From: Minisyncoccota bacterium
Lineage (GTDB): Bacteria; Patescibacteriota; Minisyncoccia; Phycocordibacterales; SBAW01
Length of the DNA stretch: 64,000 bases
NCBI GenBank assembly: GCA_018060985.1
Contig: JAGOUZ010000001.1
Location: forward strand, 21,057-85,056
Direction of reading: 5' to 3'
The first letter of the stretch is position 1, and each line of letters begins with the position of its first letter. The notes under the pieces are model-generated. The model saw only the letters and a program-made list of their open reading frames with translations. It was not told the DNA's origin and did not search any database. The translations under genes and the position numbers were made by a program. Shown here one piece after another: positions 4,605-62,860 of this stretch.

Positions 4605-5612
4605 TTGCATTGTATGTATATAGCTATGCAAAATTTCTGGCACCAGTATCGAATCCACGCCCTGCTCGTTATGGGTGCTTTTGCTCTCGGATTTCTTGCT
4701 GCCATGACCACGTCGGTACAGACGCGCGACACAGATGATCAAGCAATACGCGAGTACGACACCCGCTATCAGTTTATCCATCCCCTACTTATCTGTCAGG
4801 TAGACGAAAATGAGGAGGCAGGAGAGCTTACTTCGCTTGACCAAAAAGTGGGCCGTTTAATCAATGCCTCACAAGATGATGGAAAAATTATTTCTGCCTC
4901 GGTCTATTATCGCGACCTCAACTCAAACCGCTGGATGGGAGTCAATGAGTTAGAGTTATACGAGCCCGCAAGCCTGCTAAAAGTTCCCATCATGATGACC
5001 TATTTAAAACAAGTAGGGACTGATCCAGACATACTCGAAACAGTGTACCCCTATGAACTGCGTGAGGAAGCAAAAGACAAGTTAGTACAAAAGCCCATAC
5101 TGGTTCCGAACAAGTCATATACCGTACTCGACCTTATCCGCGGCATGATTATCCAATCTGACAACAGTGCGAAAGATATTTTGGAAGAGCACGCCGACCA
5201 GAAATCTCTTGACCAGACCTATCACATCCTTGGACTTAAGGACCCATACGAGAGCGAGAGCGGGCTGTACCAGCTTTCTACAAAAAGCTACGCACTCTTC
5301 TTCCGCGTACTTTATAACGGCACCTATCTCGGCCGCCGCATGTCTAACACCGCTCTGCAAATACTTTCTGAATCTGAATTCGTTTTGGGGCTGCGAGCTG
5401 GTACTCCGGAAAATATTGCAGTGGCCCACAAGTATGGTGTGCGCGGACTTACAGAAAGCAATGGAACAGAAGGTGTAGAACTGAGCGACTGCGGCATTGT
5501 GTATCACCCCGATTCACCCTACCTGTTGTGTGTGATGACTCATGGCACCGACCCGTACGTGTTGGCAGGTGTTATTAAAGACGTTGCTGAGACAGTGTAT
5601 AAAGAAATCTAG
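4605..5612 (+). CDS. class A beta-lactamase-like serine hydrolase with N-terminal TM
   Basis: SxxK (SLLK), SDN loop (QSDNSA) about 60 aa later, KxG (KYG) motif. Confidence 0.6.
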   Translation: MHCMYIAMQNFWHQYRIHALLVMGAFALGFLAAMTTSVQTRDTDDQAIREYDTRYQFIHPLLICQVDENEEAGELTSLDQKVGRLINASQDDGKIISASVYYRDLNSNRWMGVNELELYEPASLLKVPIMMTYLKQVGTDPDILETVYPYELREEAKDKLVQKPILVPNKSYTVLDLIRGMIIQSDNSAKDILEEHADQKSLDQTYHILGLKDPYESESGLYQLSTKSYALFFRVLYNGTYLGRRMSNTALQILSESEFVLGLRAGTPENIAVAHKYGVRGLTESNGTEGVELSDCGIVYHPDSPYLLCVMTHGTDPYVLAGVIKDVAETVYKEI

Positions 5613-23714: not shown

Positions 23715-24953
23715 TTATATTTCCTCTCTTTTTATATTGAGACCGAGTGCTTTAAGGCGCTCTTCAATCTTTTCGTATCCACGGTCAACCACATACGCAT
23801 TGCTAATTGTAGAAGTGCCGGTAGCAACCGTCGCTGCAAGAATGTACGCAAGGCCAGCGCGGAGGTCAGGGCCCTCGAGCTCTTTGCGGGTAAGCGCGCG
23901 CGGACCGCGCACCAAAATTTTATGCGGGTTCATAACCGTCATTTTTGCTCCCATGCGGGTCAGATCGTCCACATAGCGGAAGCGTCCGTCAAATATAGTC
24001 TCGAGCAGCGTCCCCTCGCCAGTGCACTGGCTCATAAACACAGCCATGGGCGCCTGTAGGTCGGTTGGGAAGCCTGGATACTCGTGCGTACGCACGGAGG
24101 TAAGTTTATATTCGCTGTTTGGCTTAGAGCCTCGGATGGTCACCGAGTCCGGCCCTACTTCAATATCAACACCGGCGCGTTTAAGTATTGAGATAAGTGC
24201 GCCTATATGCTCCGGCACACAGTTAGTAACCTTTACTTCTTTAGCAGCAAGTGCGGCAAATATCACAAAGCTACCCGCCTCGATACGATCTGGTACAACC
24301 GTATATGCCTTGCCTTCTGCTTTTAACAAACTACCTCCGGTGATTTTTATCGTTGAAGTGCCAGCGCCTTCAATTTTAGCGCCGCAGGCATTTAGGTAGG
24401 CTGCTAGATGCGGGATCTCCGGCTCCATCGCGGCGTTGTGCATTTCTGTCACACCCTCTGCCAAGACTGCGGCGAGCATCATCGTCTCGGTAGCCGTAAC
24501 AGAAACAAACGGGAAAAAAATCTGCGCCCCCTTTAATTTTTTAGCTTTAATCTTAAAGTAGCTCTCCTCTTCTTCTACCTCGGCGCCCATGGCCTTAAAG
24601 CTGTGTAAAAAGAGGTCAATCGAACGCTCTCCAAGCACACAGCCACCCGGGAACGGGAACTCCACCGAGCCCATCTTGGCCAAGACTGGCCCAGTCAAAA
24701 TTATTGACGCTCTAAAGCGCTCGGCAATATCTTTACGCAATGCAGTATTCCCCTGCTTGATATCAACGAGGAGCTCCTGCATGCGCTTAACGTCCTCTAT
24801 ACCCGGCAGGTTTTCATATTGCACCTCGTCTTCAAAGAGTACGCTTGCGGCAAGAGCAGGCAGAGCGCCGTTTTTAGCACCCTTAATCTGCACCTCGCCC
24901 TGAAGTGTCTTCTTGCCTGCCAGACCTTCGACAATAAATTTACTGTTTGCCAT
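23715..24953 (-). CDS. murA: UDP-N-acetylglucosamine 1-carboxyvinyltransferase
   Basis: EPSP-synthase fold MurA motifs, 412 aa. Confidence 0.9.
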   Translation of the reverse strand: MANSKFIVEGLAGKKTLQGEVQIKGAKNGALPALAASVLFEDEVQYENLPGIEDVKRMQELLVDIKQGNTALRKDIAERFRASIILTGPVLAKMGSVEFPFPGGCVLGERSIDLFLHSFKAMGAEVEEEESYFKIKAKKLKGAQIFFPFVSVTATETMMLAAVLAEGVTEMHNAAMEPEIPHLAAYLNACGAKIEGAGTSTIKITGGSLLKAEGKAYTVVPDRIEAGSFVIFAALAAKEVKVTNCVPEHIGALISILKRAGVDIEVGPDSVTIRGSKPNSEYKLTSVRTHEYPGFPTDLQAPMAVFMSQCTGEGTLLETIFDGRFRYVDDLTRMGAKMTVMNPHKILVRGPRALTRKELEGPDLRAGLAYILAATVATGTSTISNAYVVDRGYEKIEERLKALGLNIKREEI

Positions 24954-25293
24954 ACGATTTGTAGTTTTTGAATGGTTTTTTAGTATCGAGCGCAGCGAAC
25001 TTCTTTTTCTGCTCTTCTTTTGCTTCTTTAGTATGATTCTTTGGATTGACCTCCCACCAGAATTTTTTAGAAAAGTCGGGTGCCTGGTTGCATACGCTCT
25101 GTAAATAGTAGAGATCCTTGGTCGGTATAAGCTGGAGGACCTTTGCCATCCGCGCCAAGCTGAGTGCCGTGTAGCCGTCGCGCACGCGGGTGCTGTTTAA
25201 CTTATCACGAAAATATTGCATAAGCTCGCCACGCTCAGTCACCTTTTCCTTCTTGCTCAAGGTCTTGGTTATGTGCATTTTTATGTGCTCCAT
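24940..25293 (-). CDS. hypothetical protein with lysine-rich C-terminal tail
   Basis: ORF overlaps murA start by 14 bp (coupled); tail KEAKEEQKKKFAALDTKKPFKNYKSYGKQ. Confidence 0.45.
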   Translation of the reverse strand: MEHIKMHITKTLSKKEKVTERGELMQYFRDKLNSTRVRDGYTALSLARMAKVLQLIPTKDLYYLQSVCNQAPDFSKKFWWEVNPKNHTKEAKEEQKKKFAALDTKKPFKNYKSYGKQ

Positions 25294-25358
25294 TCCTCCT
25301 ATTGTACCTGTCCCGATACGCTGTTGACAAAAGACTATACCGGCAGTATTGTGTTTGG

Positions 25359-25575
25359 TAGTTAGTTTCGAACGCAGAAATGCAGATGGGTCCTCTGGCT
25401 AACCCCCCACCCCGACCTCCAGCCATGACCCTAGGTCGGTTCCGTGCGCCCCCACGGGACCGACCACCCCATTCCAATCTGCGTGTTGCCGCGTTTTCCC
25501 GCCCCCCTCGAACGCGCCGCATGCGCAGATACTAGGCCGGCTCCCACCGAGAGCCGGCCTTTTCTTTTACCCAAA
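25359..25575 (+). ncRNA. candidate structured GC-rich ncRNA or cis-regulatory leader upstream of def (identity unknown)
   Basis: promoter TTGACA(25324)-N17-TATTGT(25347); about 215 nt GC-rich non-coding; intrinsic terminator ggccggctcccaccgagagccggcc+ttttctttt at 25538-25575; only low-complexity spurious ORF on minus strand. Confidence 0.35.
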
Positions 25576-25594
25576 AAGTCGTTATCGTAAATCA

Positions 25595-26140
25595 GTGAAT
25601 GACTCTATAGTCCAAATCGGCGACCCGGTCCTTAAGGCTGTGGCTAAGCCTGTCCTTAAAAAGGACATTGCCTCCCGCAAAATACAGACCCTTCTTTCTA
25701 AAATGAGCAAAGTGCTCGCGAAGGAGGGTTTTGGTGTTGCCTTAGCGGCACCGCAGGTTGGCGAGTCGCTCCGTATTTTTGTTATTGCCGGCAAGGTCTT
25801 CCAGCCAGAAGAAATGGCCGATGATAAGCCCACTCCCCCCGATCGCGTATTTATTAACCCGGAGTTTGTCCGCGTGTCTAAGGCTACGGTAGAAATGACC
25901 GAGGGCTGCCTGTCGGTGCGACACAAATACGGCAGCGTGGTCAGACACGAGAAGGCAAGCGTCAAAGCTCTTAACGAAAAGGGCGCTCCGTTTATCTACC
26001 ACGGGAGCGGCCTCGTGGCACAGATCTTCCAGCACGAGATAGATCACCTTGATGGCATTCTATATATAGACAAAGCCGAGAGCGTTACTGACGACGAAAA
26101 TTGGCAGAGCCTTAAAGAAAAGAGAGAAACACGTGACTAG
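25595..26140 (+). CDS. def: peptide deformylase
   Basis: GVALAAPQVG, EGCLS, HEIDHLDG motifs. Confidence 0.9.
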   Translation: MNDSIVQIGDPVLKAVAKPVLKKDIASRKIQTLLSKMSKVLAKEGFGVALAAPQVGESLRIFVIAGKVFQPEEMADDKPTPPDRVFINPEFVRVSKATVEMTEGCLSVRHKYGSVVRHEKASVKALNEKGAPFIYHGSGLVAQIFQHEIDHLDGILYIDKAESVTDDENWQSLKEKRETRD

Positions 26141-26990
26141 CACCAACCCCTTATTCGCATTTTTTGGTACACCGCGCTTTGCTGTGCGAGTTTTGGATGC
26201 ACTTGAAGCGAAGGGCCTGCTTCCTGCATTGGTGATTACTGCGCCAGATAAACCCGCAGGGCGCGGACTCGAGGTTAAGCAATCGCCTGTTAAAGAATGG
26301 GCGCTCGCCCGAGGCATAGATGTGCTTACGCCTACAACGCTAAAAGACGAAACTTTGGTGGCAGAACTTCAGAACACCGATTGGGACGTATTTTTAGTTG
26401 CCGCCTATAACAAGCTAATCCCCAACGCCATTTTGAATATTCCACAGAAGGGTTCGCTTAACGTGCACCCGTCTCTCTTACCCAAATTCCGCGGCCCTTC
26501 CCCCGCCCTTTCTGCCGTTCTAGCCGACGAACGCACCACCGGCGTAAGCGTTATGCAAATGTCAGACAAAATGGATGCCGGCCCCGTGGTGGCACAAGCA
26601 CGCATTGAACTTGAAGAAAGTGAGTGGCCTCCGAAAGGTTCTTTGTTTGAAGACCTACTTGCGACCGAGGGCGGCACCCTGCTTGCAGAGACTTTGCCCG
26701 AGTGGCTTAAGGGCACCATTACTCCCGAGGTGCAGGACGAAACTATGGCGACGTTTACAAAAAAGTTTAGCTCTAATGATGCACTCATTGACCTTAGCGG
26801 CAACGCACGCGAGCAGCTGCTTAAAATCCGCGCATTCGACAAAAACCCACGCGCTTTTTATATAGATCAAAACGGTAAGCGCATCATCATTACCGAAGCA
26901 GACATAGTTGACGGCAAACTAGAAATCCTTAAAGTCATACCCGAGGGCAAAAAGGAGATGGAATATAAGGAGTTTTTGAAGGGGGCCTAA
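26133..26990 (+). CDS. fmt: methionyl-tRNA formyltransferase
   Basis: formyltransferase N-domain (NVHPSLLPKFRG) plus C-terminal domain; overlaps def stop. Confidence 0.9.
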   Translation: MTSTNPLFAFFGTPRFAVRVLDALEAKGLLPALVITAPDKPAGRGLEVKQSPVKEWALARGIDVLTPTTLKDETLVAELQNTDWDVFLVAAYNKLIPNAILNIPQKGSLNVHPSLLPKFRGPSPALSAVLADERTTGVSVMQMSDKMDAGPVVAQARIELEESEWPPKGSLFEDLLATEGGTLLAETLPEWLKGTITPEVQDETMATFTKKFSSNDALIDLSGNAREQLLKIRAFDKNPRAFYIDQNGKRIIITEADIVDGKLEILKVIPEGKKEMEYKEFLKGA

Positions 26991-55008: not shown

Positions 55009-55734
55009 ATGACCGAAGCATCAGAGCCAGCAATGCATCCTGAGGAGCCACATACGGGTGGAGAGGGTTCTAAACTTAACTGGCTGCGAGCAGCCGTGCT
55101 GGGCGCCAACGACGGCATTGTATCTGTTGCTGCACTGGTGGTTGGCGTAGCAGGTGCCACCGACTCGGCAAGCTTTATTTTTACTGCCGGCATTGCCGGT
55201 GTTATCGCAGGCGCCCTCTCAATGGCCGTTGGTGAGTATGTCTCGGTCTCAAGCCAAAGCGACACCGAAAAGGCGCTTATTGAAAAAGAGCGTCGCGAGC
55301 TTGCCGAGGAGCCAGACATAGAACTTGAGGAGCTTACAAAAATATACGAAAACAAGGGTCTTTCCCGCTCTACCGCCGAAACTGTGGCAAAAGAGCTGAC
55401 TGCACACGATGCCCTTACGGCTCACCTTGAGGCCGAGCTGAACATCCGCCAGGAGCACCTAACTAACCCCTGGCAGGCTGCAGTAGCATCGGCGGCATCG
55501 TTTTTTGCCGGCGCGGCACTACCTATGATTGCCATCACGGTGCCGCCGCCCGAGTGGCGCATCCAGGTCACTTTTGTGTCGGTCGCTCTAGCTCTAGCCA
55601 TTACCGGCTCTCTCAGCGCGTATGTGGGTGATGCAAGCAAAAAGCGCGCCACCATGCGTGTGGTGATGGGGGGCGCGCTTGCGATGGCAATAACCTTCGG
55701 TATTGGCAAGATATTTGGCGTTACAGGGATATAG
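55009..55734 (+). CDS. VIT1/CCC1-family iron/manganese transporter
   Basis: NWLRAAVLGANDGIVSVAALVVGVAGA, GEYVSVSSQ, cytoplasmic helical insert, C-terminal TMs. Confidence 0.8.
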   Translation: MTEASEPAMHPEEPHTGGEGSKLNWLRAAVLGANDGIVSVAALVVGVAGATDSASFIFTAGIAGVIAGALSMAVGEYVSVSSQSDTEKALIEKERRELAEEPDIELEELTKIYENKGLSRSTAETVAKELTAHDALTAHLEAELNIRQEHLTNPWQAAVASAASFFAGAALPMIAITVPPPEWRIQVTFVSVALALAITGSLSAYVGDASKKRATMRVVMGGALAMAITFGIGKIFGVTGI

Positions 55735-61720: not shown

Positions 61721-62860
61721 TTATCTCCACTCTTTAAGCAGTTGCCACTTGTGGTTGAGTACCGTGCCCAGCGTAAGGAGCATCAGTGCAAACTGTATCA
61801 GCCACCCAACGAACGGTAGCGCGCTTAATATCACGTACGCAAACACGCCAATGAGAATAGACTTCCAGTTAACAACAAACTCTCCCTTCGTAAACCATTG
61901 GTAGACAAAGCTACCAAGTAGCACTGGCGCCATAAGCCAGGTAAAGATCATCAGTGCTACGAACCCGATAAGGCCGAGTATACCGAGGGGTAGACCAATT
62001 ACCGTGATCATGAGCAGTACCGAGAGCACAGGAAGCACGATAAGCGCTATAAGTCCGCGAGCCATTTCTGGCCAAGGGCGGCGCAAGGCGCTATGTACCA
62101 AGTGTGTGCTGTAACGTTTAAATACCAAGCCAATCACCAAGGCACCGGTCAGAAGCATAAGAATCTTCACAAACAGCCCGAAGGAGATAAACGCTGCGAG
62201 AGCCGCCCCGCTTGCATGTTTGCCTGGAGTTGGGGTGTAGGTAGTCTGACCACGCACCTGCGCCCCTTGCTCTATAATCGCTGCATTTGGTGACTTGTAG
62301 GTAAAATTGCCGGAAATAATAGCGTTGCTCCCAAGAGTAATTTTATCTGCCTCAATTTCTACATTGCCTGCAACCGGTCCATTTATATACACCTCTCCGC
62401 CACCTGCTTTAACATCCTGCCCTACTGGTGACTCAATGCGCACCGTGCCGCCGCCCGCGAGCACGTCACCGCCAATCTGACCCCCCGCTAACTGTATCTG
62501 ACCTCCGCCCACAACCACATCACCTCCCACAGGGCCCTGCACGACAATCGTGCCTCCGCCAATACGTAAGTCATCGCCTACCGAACCGGTAACCGTAACG
62601 GTACCGCCGCCAATGACTGCATCTGCCAGTACTGAACCGGTAATAAGCACCGTACCGCCACCCGCATATAAATCGCCCCCTATAGATCCGGCAGAAGTTA
62701 CCGTGCCTCCTGCAGCATATACATCGTCAGCAATATTCTCTCCTGCATTCGCATGAATGCTAACGGTATCCCCCGAATGAAAGGTTGCTGCTAACACTAC
62801 AGCCGGTACCAAAAAAGCAATACCGACAGCGCCCATGACCCGAAAAGTCGTTTTAGTCAT
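61721..62860 (-). CDS. membrane protein with extracytoplasmic beta-helical GG-rich repeats (DUF4097/bactofilin-like) and C-terminal TM helices
   Basis: tandem units like GGGTVxVxGxVGGDV; N-terminal signal; 4 C-terminal TMs. Confidence 0.5.
   Translation of the reverse strand: MTKTTFRVMGAVGIAFLVPAVVLAATFHSGDTVSIHANAGENIADDVYAAGGTVTSAGSIGGDLYAGGGTVLITGSVLADAVIGGGTVTVTGSVGDDLRIGGGTIVVQGPVGGDVVVGGGQIQLAGGQIGGDVLAGGGTVRIESPVGQDVKAGGGEVYINGPVAGNVEIEADKITLGSNAIISGNFTYKSPNAAIIEQGAQVRGQTTYTPTPGKHASGAALAAFISFGLFVKILMLLTGALVIGLVFKRYSTHLVHSALRRPWPEMARGLIALIVLPVLSVLLMITVIGLPLGILGLIGFVALMIFTWLMAPVLLGSFVYQWFTKGEFVVNWKSILIGVFAYVILSALPFVGWLIQFALMLLTLGTVLNHKWQLLKEWR

Follow-up and report, generated by a model that had tools for sequence, protein, structure and literature searches.

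This study analysed a 64,000-nucleotide stretch of contig JAGOUZ010000001.1 from a Minisyncoccota bacterium (assembly GCA_018060985.1), referred to below as the window, and asked what is encoded by an unusually C-rich segment located directly upstream of the genes def and fmt. A preliminary description made from the sequence had regarded this segment as a non-coding unit running from a promoter to a terminator and had offered two alternatives for it, namely an independent small RNA (sRNA) or a leader with an attenuator or riboswitch-like switch that controls def-fmt. We propose, with a probability of roughly 0.55, that the region encodes an independent, trans-acting sRNA of approximately 210 nt that belongs to an undescribed family and base-pairs through C-rich loops. 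Homologous and comparison loci fetched for the analysis, some of which belong to the Candidate Phyla Radiation (abbreviated CPR), carry L-numbers as designations (L007, L083, L200 and so on).

The promoter scan identified TTGACA-17-TATTGT at 25324-25352 on the plus strand, which agrees with the consensus at 10 of 12 positions; the interval 24500-26500 contained four promoter-like sites, compared with 1.4 ± 1.3 in shuffled sequences. At 25400-25549, GC content reached 0.687 and GC skew −0.36, against a mean GC content of 0.50 in the window. The segment closed with an intrinsic terminator, a GC-rich hairpin directly before a U-tract (25534-25568). Its stem (25534-25560) comprised 10 bp, eight of them G-C, around a 7-nt loop and was followed by TTTTCTTTT up to 25568; the hairpin alone was predicted to fold at −20.2 kcal/mol, and the string CUCCCACCG at the loop spanned 25541-25549. 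The near-consensus promoter, the GC- and C-rich composition, the strong terminator on the def strand and all the strings quoted in the preliminary description were thus confirmed, and two of its details can be stated more exactly. The 20 nt given as the distance from terminator to def was counted from the end coordinate of the annotated unit, whereas the U-tract itself lies 26 nt before the GTG start codon of def at 25595. The palindrome cgccgcatgcgcag was present but is simply the 3' arm of the third hairpin (25477-25530).

Both the promoter and the terminator were kept in all full-length CPR homologues. The sequence GTTGACAAA at the promoter was conserved in L083, L084, L086, L087 and L088, and the −10 boxes of the homologues read TACTGT, CATTAT, TACTCT or TATTGT at the same spacing. 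The terminators of the homologues differed in stem sequence and always retained a hairpin followed by CUUUUCUUU. On these comparisons, the prediction that the C-rich region forms a separate transcription unit with its own promoter and terminator is well supported.

We then considered the fold of the predicted transcript. The plus strand from 25355 to 25575 folded at −89.5 kcal/mol, compared with −59.7 ± 4.1 kcal/mol for shuffled sequences (z = −7.35), and none of 200 shuffles folded as well; the minus strand of the same region reached a z of only −3.05. The predicted structure was a row of four GC-rich hairpins, A to D, the last of which is the terminator (Table 1). Among its 101 unpaired bases, 48 were C and 8 were G. 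The motif CGCCCC occurred in the loops of both hairpin B and hairpin C, and the homologues carried two or three loops of the CGCCCC type. C-rich linkers after hairpin B were also present in L087 and L088, and a counterpart of hairpin C could be aligned in L083.

The contigs encoding the closest Def proteins were fetched and compared at the spacer upstream of def. A homologous RNA was found in every spacer (270-330 nt) of L083/L084, L085, L086, L087 and L088, whose Def proteins were 75-88% identical to that of the window, and in the partial contig L091 (73%). The spacers of L089, L090 and L092 (Def 70-72%) were 27-109 nt long and contained no such RNA. When the RNA was compared with the 80 nearest Paceibacteria def loci (GTDB species representatives), blastn and nhmmer returned no match, and a covariance model of the RNA returned none except a local match resembling hairpin A in L010. 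In the nearest of these 80 loci (Def 55-69%), def and the counterpart of the small gene that flanks the RNA on its other side in the window (there encoding 117 aa) were divergent and only approximately 50-100 nt apart. As judged by these searches, the RNA is conserved only in a narrow clade of the CPR.

The contigs that carry the RNA kept the −35 and −10 boxes, the terminator with CUUUUCUUU and a block immediately before def, TCGTTATCGTA; between these landmarks the number of hairpins and the stem sequences varied. All members shared two adjacent hairpins, A and B, which we refer to as the core. Hairpin A had a stem of 10-15 bp and a loop of 17-24 nt, and the core of this loop, CCCCACCCCGACCUCC, was the same in four CPR species and the alphaproteobacterial copies described below, without variation; L085 and L086 carried variants with ...CCCACC...CCCCGUCCC. 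Hairpin B had a stem of 10-13 bp whose sequence changed between members and a CGCCCC loop whose closing pair was kept.

Each homologue, when folded alone, adopted the same A and B architecture. RNAalifold applied to an unfitted MAFFT alignment recovered hairpin B, with compensatory changes at 5 of 13 pairs. In a structural alignment made by hand, standard pairs occupied 97.9% of the cells, as opposed to 76% in shuffles, and two-sided (compensatory) changes were observed at 18 of the 30 pairs of the core; in hairpin A, such changes affected all 6 pairs of one helix and 7 of the 11 pairs of the other. In a shuffle control that ignores phylogeny, the observed value was reached by none of 500 shuffles on four of five measures and by 7 of 500 for further pair types. 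Sliding the partner columns by one to three positions reduced pairing to 28-45%. The compensatory changes in the aligned stems show selection on RNA pairing. Because the stems vary by compensatory substitution while the loops stay frozen, the pattern is the signature expected of an RNA whose loops form its working surface. The C-rich motifs lie in loops or single strands and are more conserved than the stems, as in the C-rich-loop class of sRNAs. Conservation and covariation, the check proposed in the preliminary description, were found in close relatives, and no reading frame or peptide was conserved among the homologues. The minus-strand open reading frame (ORF) at 25235-25522, which that description had dismissed as an artefact, does exist and shares this lack of conservation; shorter ORFs of 47-51 aa occur on both strands.

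The RNA was next sought outside the CPR. Metagenome contigs of the Joint Genome Institute (JGI) were scanned for both loop sequences at the right spacing, and six contigs of approximately 65% GC were identified that carried GAUCACUG-(hairpin A)-(hairpin B)-GCCUUUU. The LeuC protein on one contig was 83-87% identical to proteins of Bauldia sp., and the contigs were therefore placed in Alphaproteobacteria, Hyphomicrobiales. Their loops were near-identical to those of the CPR RNA, and their junction residues resembled L083. With a covariance model built from the alignment, the alphaproteobacterial copies scored 71-77 bits and the CPR copies 48-67 bits. A seventh contig, L200, was found by way of its upstream ORF, which had only 68% protein identity, and its RNA was nearly identical to that of the other six. 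The Bauldia-like RNA has a predicted length of approximately 92 nt, with hairpin B as its terminator, and lies downstream of an ORF of 71-100 aa. Its neighbours were leuC/leuD, a GNAT gene and an MFS transporter gene, and no def-fmt was found nearby. Because these copies occur without def-fmt in their vicinity, the gene neighbourhoods indicate that the function of the core is not specific to def-fmt.

The relation between this short form and the longer CPR form was examined with the model of the A and B core. Hairpins C and D of the window (25477-25564) scored 18.3 bits against this model (E = 0.12), and their counterpart in L083 scored 24.2 bits (E = 0.005). Because the C and D half scores against the A and B model and loop C repeats CGCCCC, these comparisons suggest that the CPR RNA arose by tandem duplication and consists of two or more diverged copies of the two-hairpin unit, with transcription ending at the final copy.

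No described family accounted for the RNA. The preliminary description had recognised none, and Rfam 15, applied to the whole window at gathering scores, likewise gave no match at the C-rich RNA or elsewhere. A scan of 25200-25700 at E ≤ 10 returned only weak, terminator-driven matches, such as Thr_leader (19.9 bits; gathering score 55). Among ten homologous loci (E ≤ 1), no family reached its gathering score, the sole near-match being sX13 in L086 (397-521; 25.7 bits, E = 0.65, gathering score 50). In particular, 6C (RF01066) was matched neither in the window at the gathering score, nor in 25200-25700 at E ≤ 10, nor in the ten homologous loci at E ≤ 1; sX13 (RF02232) was not matched in 25200-25700 at E ≤ 10, and the RsaE covariance model gave no match in the window, the locus or the homologous loci.

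Several described RNAs nevertheless resemble the window RNA in design. Similar to 6C RNA, which is found in Actinobacteria and is termed B11 in mycobacteria, the window RNA has stable hairpins with conserved C-rich apical loops, and hairpins A and B reproduce the 6C arrangement of two hairpins with a conserved cytosine run in each loop, a likeness of architecture only. It differs from 6C in its 17-24-nt A loop with CCCCACCCCGACCUCC, its 6-nt CGCCCC loop, its four hairpins and the phyla in which it occurs. The sX13 RNA of Xanthomonadaceae shares the presence of several stem-loops with C-rich loops but differs in loop motifs and taxa. RsaE/RoxS of Firmicutes and AbnZ of Caulobacter share the use of unpaired C-rich motifs as a regulatory surface, without similarity in sequence or model. 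The loops of AbnZ are homopolymeric C runs, whereas the window RNA has loops of specific, mixed sequence in which every base is conserved. Shine-Dalgarno (SD) sequences, the typical site of masking by RsaE, are rare in this genome. The window RNA thus belongs to none of 6C, sX13, RsaE and AbnZ and is an unannotated family within the C-rich-loop kind of sRNA.

On the reading that we favour, the RNA would be transcribed from its own strong promoter and stopped by its own intrinsic terminator. Its core would consist of two adjacent GC-rich hairpins that present G-poor, C-rich loops, A with CCCCACCCCGACCUCC and B with CGCCCC. Tandem duplication of this unit in the present Paceibacteria lineage would have given an RNA that exposes four or five single-stranded patches rich in C and whose final hairpin is the terminator. 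Without the help of a chaperone, the loops would base-pair to G-rich segments in target RNAs, and this pairing would alter the translation or stability of the targets. 6C RNA occurs in organisms without Hfq. To our knowledge, Hfq is missing from CPR genomes, and CPR organisms are without the usual chaperones of sRNAs; seed pairing that is rich in G-C does not need Hfq and would therefore suit these genomes. RsaE/RoxS is a further C-rich-loop sRNA that acts on its targets in this way. We propose this mode of pairing because it has been demonstrated experimentally for three RNAs: the C-rich loops of 6C pair, unaided by a chaperone, with G-rich sites in mRNAs (PMC6486639), those of several sX13 stem-loops bind G-rich mRNA motifs (PMC3771888), and in AbnZ, an RNA of very high GC content with three hairpins, the C-rich loops are needed for an activity that is independent of Hfq (PMC11724286). 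Action in trans and base pairing as the mechanism are extended to the window RNA by this analogy.

A number of observations weigh against this proposal. The ends of the RNA and its discreteness as a transcript are predictions drawn from the promoter and the terminator. The alignment used for covariation was fitted by hand and corresponds to 3.29 effective sequences, the alphaproteobacterial copies being near-identical to one another. Duplex scans of the 64-kb window revealed no target site that stands out. SD-like motifs precede only 6 of the 65 ORFs in the window and offer few obvious substrates for SD blocking; general SD masking was set aside as a weak mechanism here. A loop of 16-17 nt that is near-identical in two phyla exceeds what short seed pairing needs, and this hints at a constrained partner, either a protein or a conserved RNA. 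The position upstream of def is kept throughout the CPR homologues. Finally, L010, a distant Paceibacteria locus (Def 55%), has a different C-rich unit of approximately 120 nt (2846-2968), also running from promoter to terminator, directly before def. This unit folded with a z of −5.8, had no match in Rfam, and carried a terminator loop, UCCAUCUCCCACCCCCCUCCG, that gave a local match to the model of hairpin A (12.7 bits; E = 0.002 when 501 nt were searched). Together with the kept position, the L010 unit makes a def-related role of the RNA possible.

Because the loop is frozen across phyla, two further roles stay in play, namely that of a decoy or sponge and one directed at the ribosome. As a decoy, the RNA would use its repeated C-rich loops to titrate a protein that binds C-rich RNA, or to mimic or occupy a conserved cellular RNA surface, without regulating individual mRNAs. 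We consider this explanation unlikely. A multi-hairpin array with one repeated loop motif resembles the sponges of the CsrB/RsmZ type, whose hairpin number also varies, although this likeness is one of architecture only. The motifs persist while the hairpin number differs between relatives, and the near-invariance of the loop in two phyla would suit a conserved partner. The A loop also contains ACCUCC, the core of the 16S 3' tail (E. coli 16S rRNA ends in ...GAUCACCUCCUUA). On the other hand, the motif is CGCCCC or CCCCACC rather than the GGA of CsrB/RsmZ, no candidate binding protein was identified, and nothing in the window points to a partner. We know of no bacterial protein sponge with a C-rich motif.

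The second alternative offered in the preliminary description, a cis-acting leader of def-fmt, holds that the terminator normally stops transcription and that a factor such as a protein, a tRNA or a metabolite permits read-through into def-fmt. As in terminator-based leaders and riboswitches, a promoter is followed by a structured RNA and then by an intrinsic terminator immediately upstream of genes on the same strand, and both the constancy of this position in the CPR and the L010 unit with its hairpin-A-like loop are in keeping with a leader. However, no antiterminator was found: with the 3' arm of the terminator blocked or untranscribed, its 5' arm remained essentially unpaired and hairpins A to C were unchanged, so that no mutually exclusive terminator and antiterminator structures were predicted. 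It is the apical loops, rather than a multi-helix junction, that hold the conserved nucleotides; close relatives differ in their number of hairpins, and no leader or riboswitch family of Rfam matches. A leader would be linked to its regulated genes everywhere, whereas this core is linked to def in the CPR and lies near leuC/leuD, unlinked to def-fmt, in Alphaproteobacteria. Close relatives (Def 69-72%) run def from a short intergenic region without the element. Of the two alternatives, the conserved unit and its def-unlinked core favour the independent sRNA, and the missing antiterminator disfavours the attenuator or riboswitch, which we judge doubtful.

The start of def also bears on this question. 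A −10-like box, TATCGT, lies after the terminator, and the block that contains it, TCGTTATCGTA, was conserved in all CPR homologues covering this stretch. Of 64 ORFs in the window, 18 carried a TAnnnT hexamer 5-9 nt ahead of the start codon, compared with approximately 4 expected and 2-8 at control offsets, and leaderless-type starts appear to be common in this genome (examples are found at 1539, 14642, 17993 and 25293 on the minus strand and at 55009 on the plus strand). These sequence patterns make it probable that def-fmt has a transcript of its own, made from a leaderless-type promoter that lies after the terminator and before the start codon of def. Some read-through into def is possible, as is a factor-dependent effect on def. 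A structured region upstream of def was also observed in L075 (2690-2935), a metagenome-assembled genome labelled Kaiserbacteria; it is not C-rich, folded at −98 kcal/mol (z = −5.9), ended in a terminator-like hairpin and had no match in Rfam. The site upstream of def may be a recurrent home of non-coding RNA genes in Paceibacteria.

We regard as improbable a role directed at the ribosome, in which loop A would mimic the anti-SD or would affect the assembly or hibernation of 30S subunits, although such a role would account for a loop that stays frozen in two phyla. Loop A carries the anti-SD core ACCUCC, and two blocks of complementarity link its invariant CCCCACC...CCUCC with the 16S segment GGAGGAAGGUGGGG, a segment confirmed in E. 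coli 16S rRNA. No site in E. coli 16S was predicted to pair better than this segment, either with the loops of the window and the Alphaproteobacteria (−22.8 kcal/mol, approximately 3 standard deviations below the mean) or with the independently diverged L010 loop (−28.4 kcal/mol). No 16S rRNA gene was present in the window or the fetched loci, so the complementarity rests on the E. coli sequence. An involvement of the initiator tRNA was also considered because fmt adjoins the RNA: the loop sequence CCACCCCG is complementary to CGGGGUGG, which we take to be the 5' part of E. coli tRNA-fMet. This idea was set aside: the tRNAs found in the window were tRNA-Glu and tRNA-Asn only, with no initiator tRNA, and fmt does not neighbour the RNA in Alphaproteobacteria.

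Least probable of all is that the segment is a DNA-level or evolutionary remnant (an acquired high-GC fragment, a mobile-element scar, or protein-binding, i-motif or G-quadruplex DNA) or a gene for a short Pro/Arg-rich peptide: its GC content of 0.69 against a mean of 0.50, its confinement to a sub-clade, its insertion between two divergent −10 boxes and its homologue in a high-GC phylum would fit a remnant, but the compensatory stem changes indicate selection on RNA pairing, the promoter and terminator are conserved, the element is single-copy in the window without terminal repeats or matches in phage and plasmid collections, and no frame or peptide is conserved, the open frames being a by-product of GC-rich composition with none common to the homologues.

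The origin of the sRNA gene that we favour was considered separately. The RNA sits between two back-to-back −10 boxes that adjoin each other in relatives, and its GC content exceeds the 0.50 mean by approximately 19 points. Because of this insertion, the high GC content and the location of the closest counterparts outside the CPR in a high-GC phylum, the sequence data are compatible with horizontal acquisition followed by duplication. The L010 unit hints instead at an ancient presence with losses. Loops that are near-identical in different phyla suggest that the RNA either was transferred horizontally in recent times or has a partner that is very conserved. The CPR is a group known for episymbiosis, and, as a remote further possibility, an RNA common to a CPR lineage and Hyphomicrobiales may reflect horizontal transfer between partners or even use against a host.

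A repeat or mobile element was rejected as the source, since the RNA is single-copy in the window and the other C-rich stretch lies inside an ORF; that stretch, the second most C-rich of the plus strand (approximately 62448), falls within a 379-aa minus-strand ORF at 61721-62860. No inverted or direct terminal repeats were found around the RNA, and blastn against the INPHARED phages and the PLSDB plasmids gave no match. In IMG/VR, the specific pattern of A and B had no match. A scan of IMG/VR with the 15-mer CCCACCCCGACCTCC gave 101 matches, which were attributed to chance in high-GC phages and to one unrelated phage hairpin family. Approximately 40 IMG/VR contigs of one high-GC phage group (among L099-L199, for example L099 at 3754) share the hairpin CAGGAGGTGGGCGCCACCCCACCCCGACCTCCCTTCAGGAGGTTTCGG, which contains the loop A 15-mer. 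It was judged unrelated, as the 15-mer lies there in a stem or terminator-like element and hairpin B is lacking.

If our proposal is correct, the locus would provide an sRNA family in Paceibacteria that is supported by covariation and that has, in its C-rich loops, a functional surface amenable to mutation. We know of no characterised regulatory RNA in Patescibacteria/CPR, and a limited literature search found no paper on CPR small RNAs. Near-identity of loops across phyla is unusual for sRNAs. Cultured species of Bauldia, the nearest named genus, exist, and the function could be tested if one of them carries the RNA. The locus is also useful for the annotation of CPR genomes, as it combines a compact bidirectional promoter and leaderless-type starts with scarce SD motifs.

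Table 1. Features of the C-rich RNA locus and its neighbours (window coordinates).
Feature	Position	Strand	Basis and remarks
−35 hexamer of the RNA promoter, TTGACA	25324-25329	+	Promoter scan; the 117-aa gene has its −35 (TTGTCA) here on the minus strand
−10 hexamer of the RNA promoter, TATTGT	25347-25352	+	Promoter scan; 17-nt spacer; predicted start approximately 25359
Predicted RNA, approximately 210 nt	25359-25568	+	Ends inferred from promoter and terminator; fold z = −7.35
Hairpin A	25388-25431	+	Outer stem GGGUC/GACCC, inner stem UGGCU/AGCCA; 20-nt loop AACCCCCCACCCCGACCUCC (25401-25420)
Hairpin B	25434-25465	+	13-bp stem; 6-nt loop CGCCCC (25447-25452)
C-rich single-stranded linker ACCCCAUUCCA	25466-25476	+	Unpaired in minimum-free-energy and centroid structures
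Hairpin C	25477-25530	+	Long interrupted stem; loop contains CCCGCCCCCCUCG; second CGCCCC at 25500-25505
Hairpin D, intrinsic terminator	25534-25568	+	10-bp stem, loop CCACCGA, U-tract UUUUCUUUU
−10-like box TATCGT	25583-25588	+	6 nt before the def GTG; probable leaderless def promoter
def (peptide deformylase)	25595-26140	+	Downstream neighbour of the RNA; start GTG; Pfam PF01327
fmt (methionyl-tRNA formyltransferase)	26133-26990	+	Overlaps the end of def; Pfam PF00551
117-aa gene	24940-25293	−	Divergent upstream neighbour; promoter TTGTCA-18-TACAAT at 25330-25301

The window belongs to a Patescibacteria (CPR) genome of Paceibacteria/Parcubacteria type. The closest proteins to the Def of the window carry the labels Candidatus Pacebacteria, Adlerbacteria or Paceibacterota, and contigs identical to the window contig were present in two public runs, SRR11088367 and SRR12762304. 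The gene order around the RNA is mreB(−), murA(−), the 117-aa gene(−), the C-rich RNA(+), def(+), fmt(+) and a convergent gene for a hibernation factor. In this part of Paceibacteria, the 117-aa gene is always divergent from def, with or without the C-rich RNA. Its protein had no family in Pfam; it is lysine-rich and contains a conserved motif resembling FWWEVNPKN.

Several features were noted around the RNA in the Bauldia-like contigs. The upstream ORF of 71-100 aa, which ends in ...PRKLIPGQTYH, has 29 homologues, all unnamed, and a search of Pfam with the 99-aa protein of these contigs returned no family. The spacer that follows the RNA in L093-L098 and L200 (for example, 6325-6600 in L200) is patchily conserved, with GTTAAC in six of the seven contigs and then ...CTGAAC...ATAAACG..., and an ORF of approximately 44 aa after this spacer ends in ...RRxRWRGSDGRWxW....

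In L007, two copies of AAACGCCCCCACTTGCGTGG(A/C)G(A/G)CG(T/C)TTACGAGTA were observed at approximately 5017-5090 and 5131-5200, about 2 kb downstream of def; this pair may represent a hairpin with a CGCCCCC loop that occurs as a repeat. In the window, the 7-mer TTGACAA (25324-25330) supplies a −35 element on both strands and forms a compact bidirectional promoter at 25301-25352, and this bidirectional arrangement, with the C-rich RNA on the plus strand and the 117-aa gene on the minus strand, is kept in the CPR homologues.

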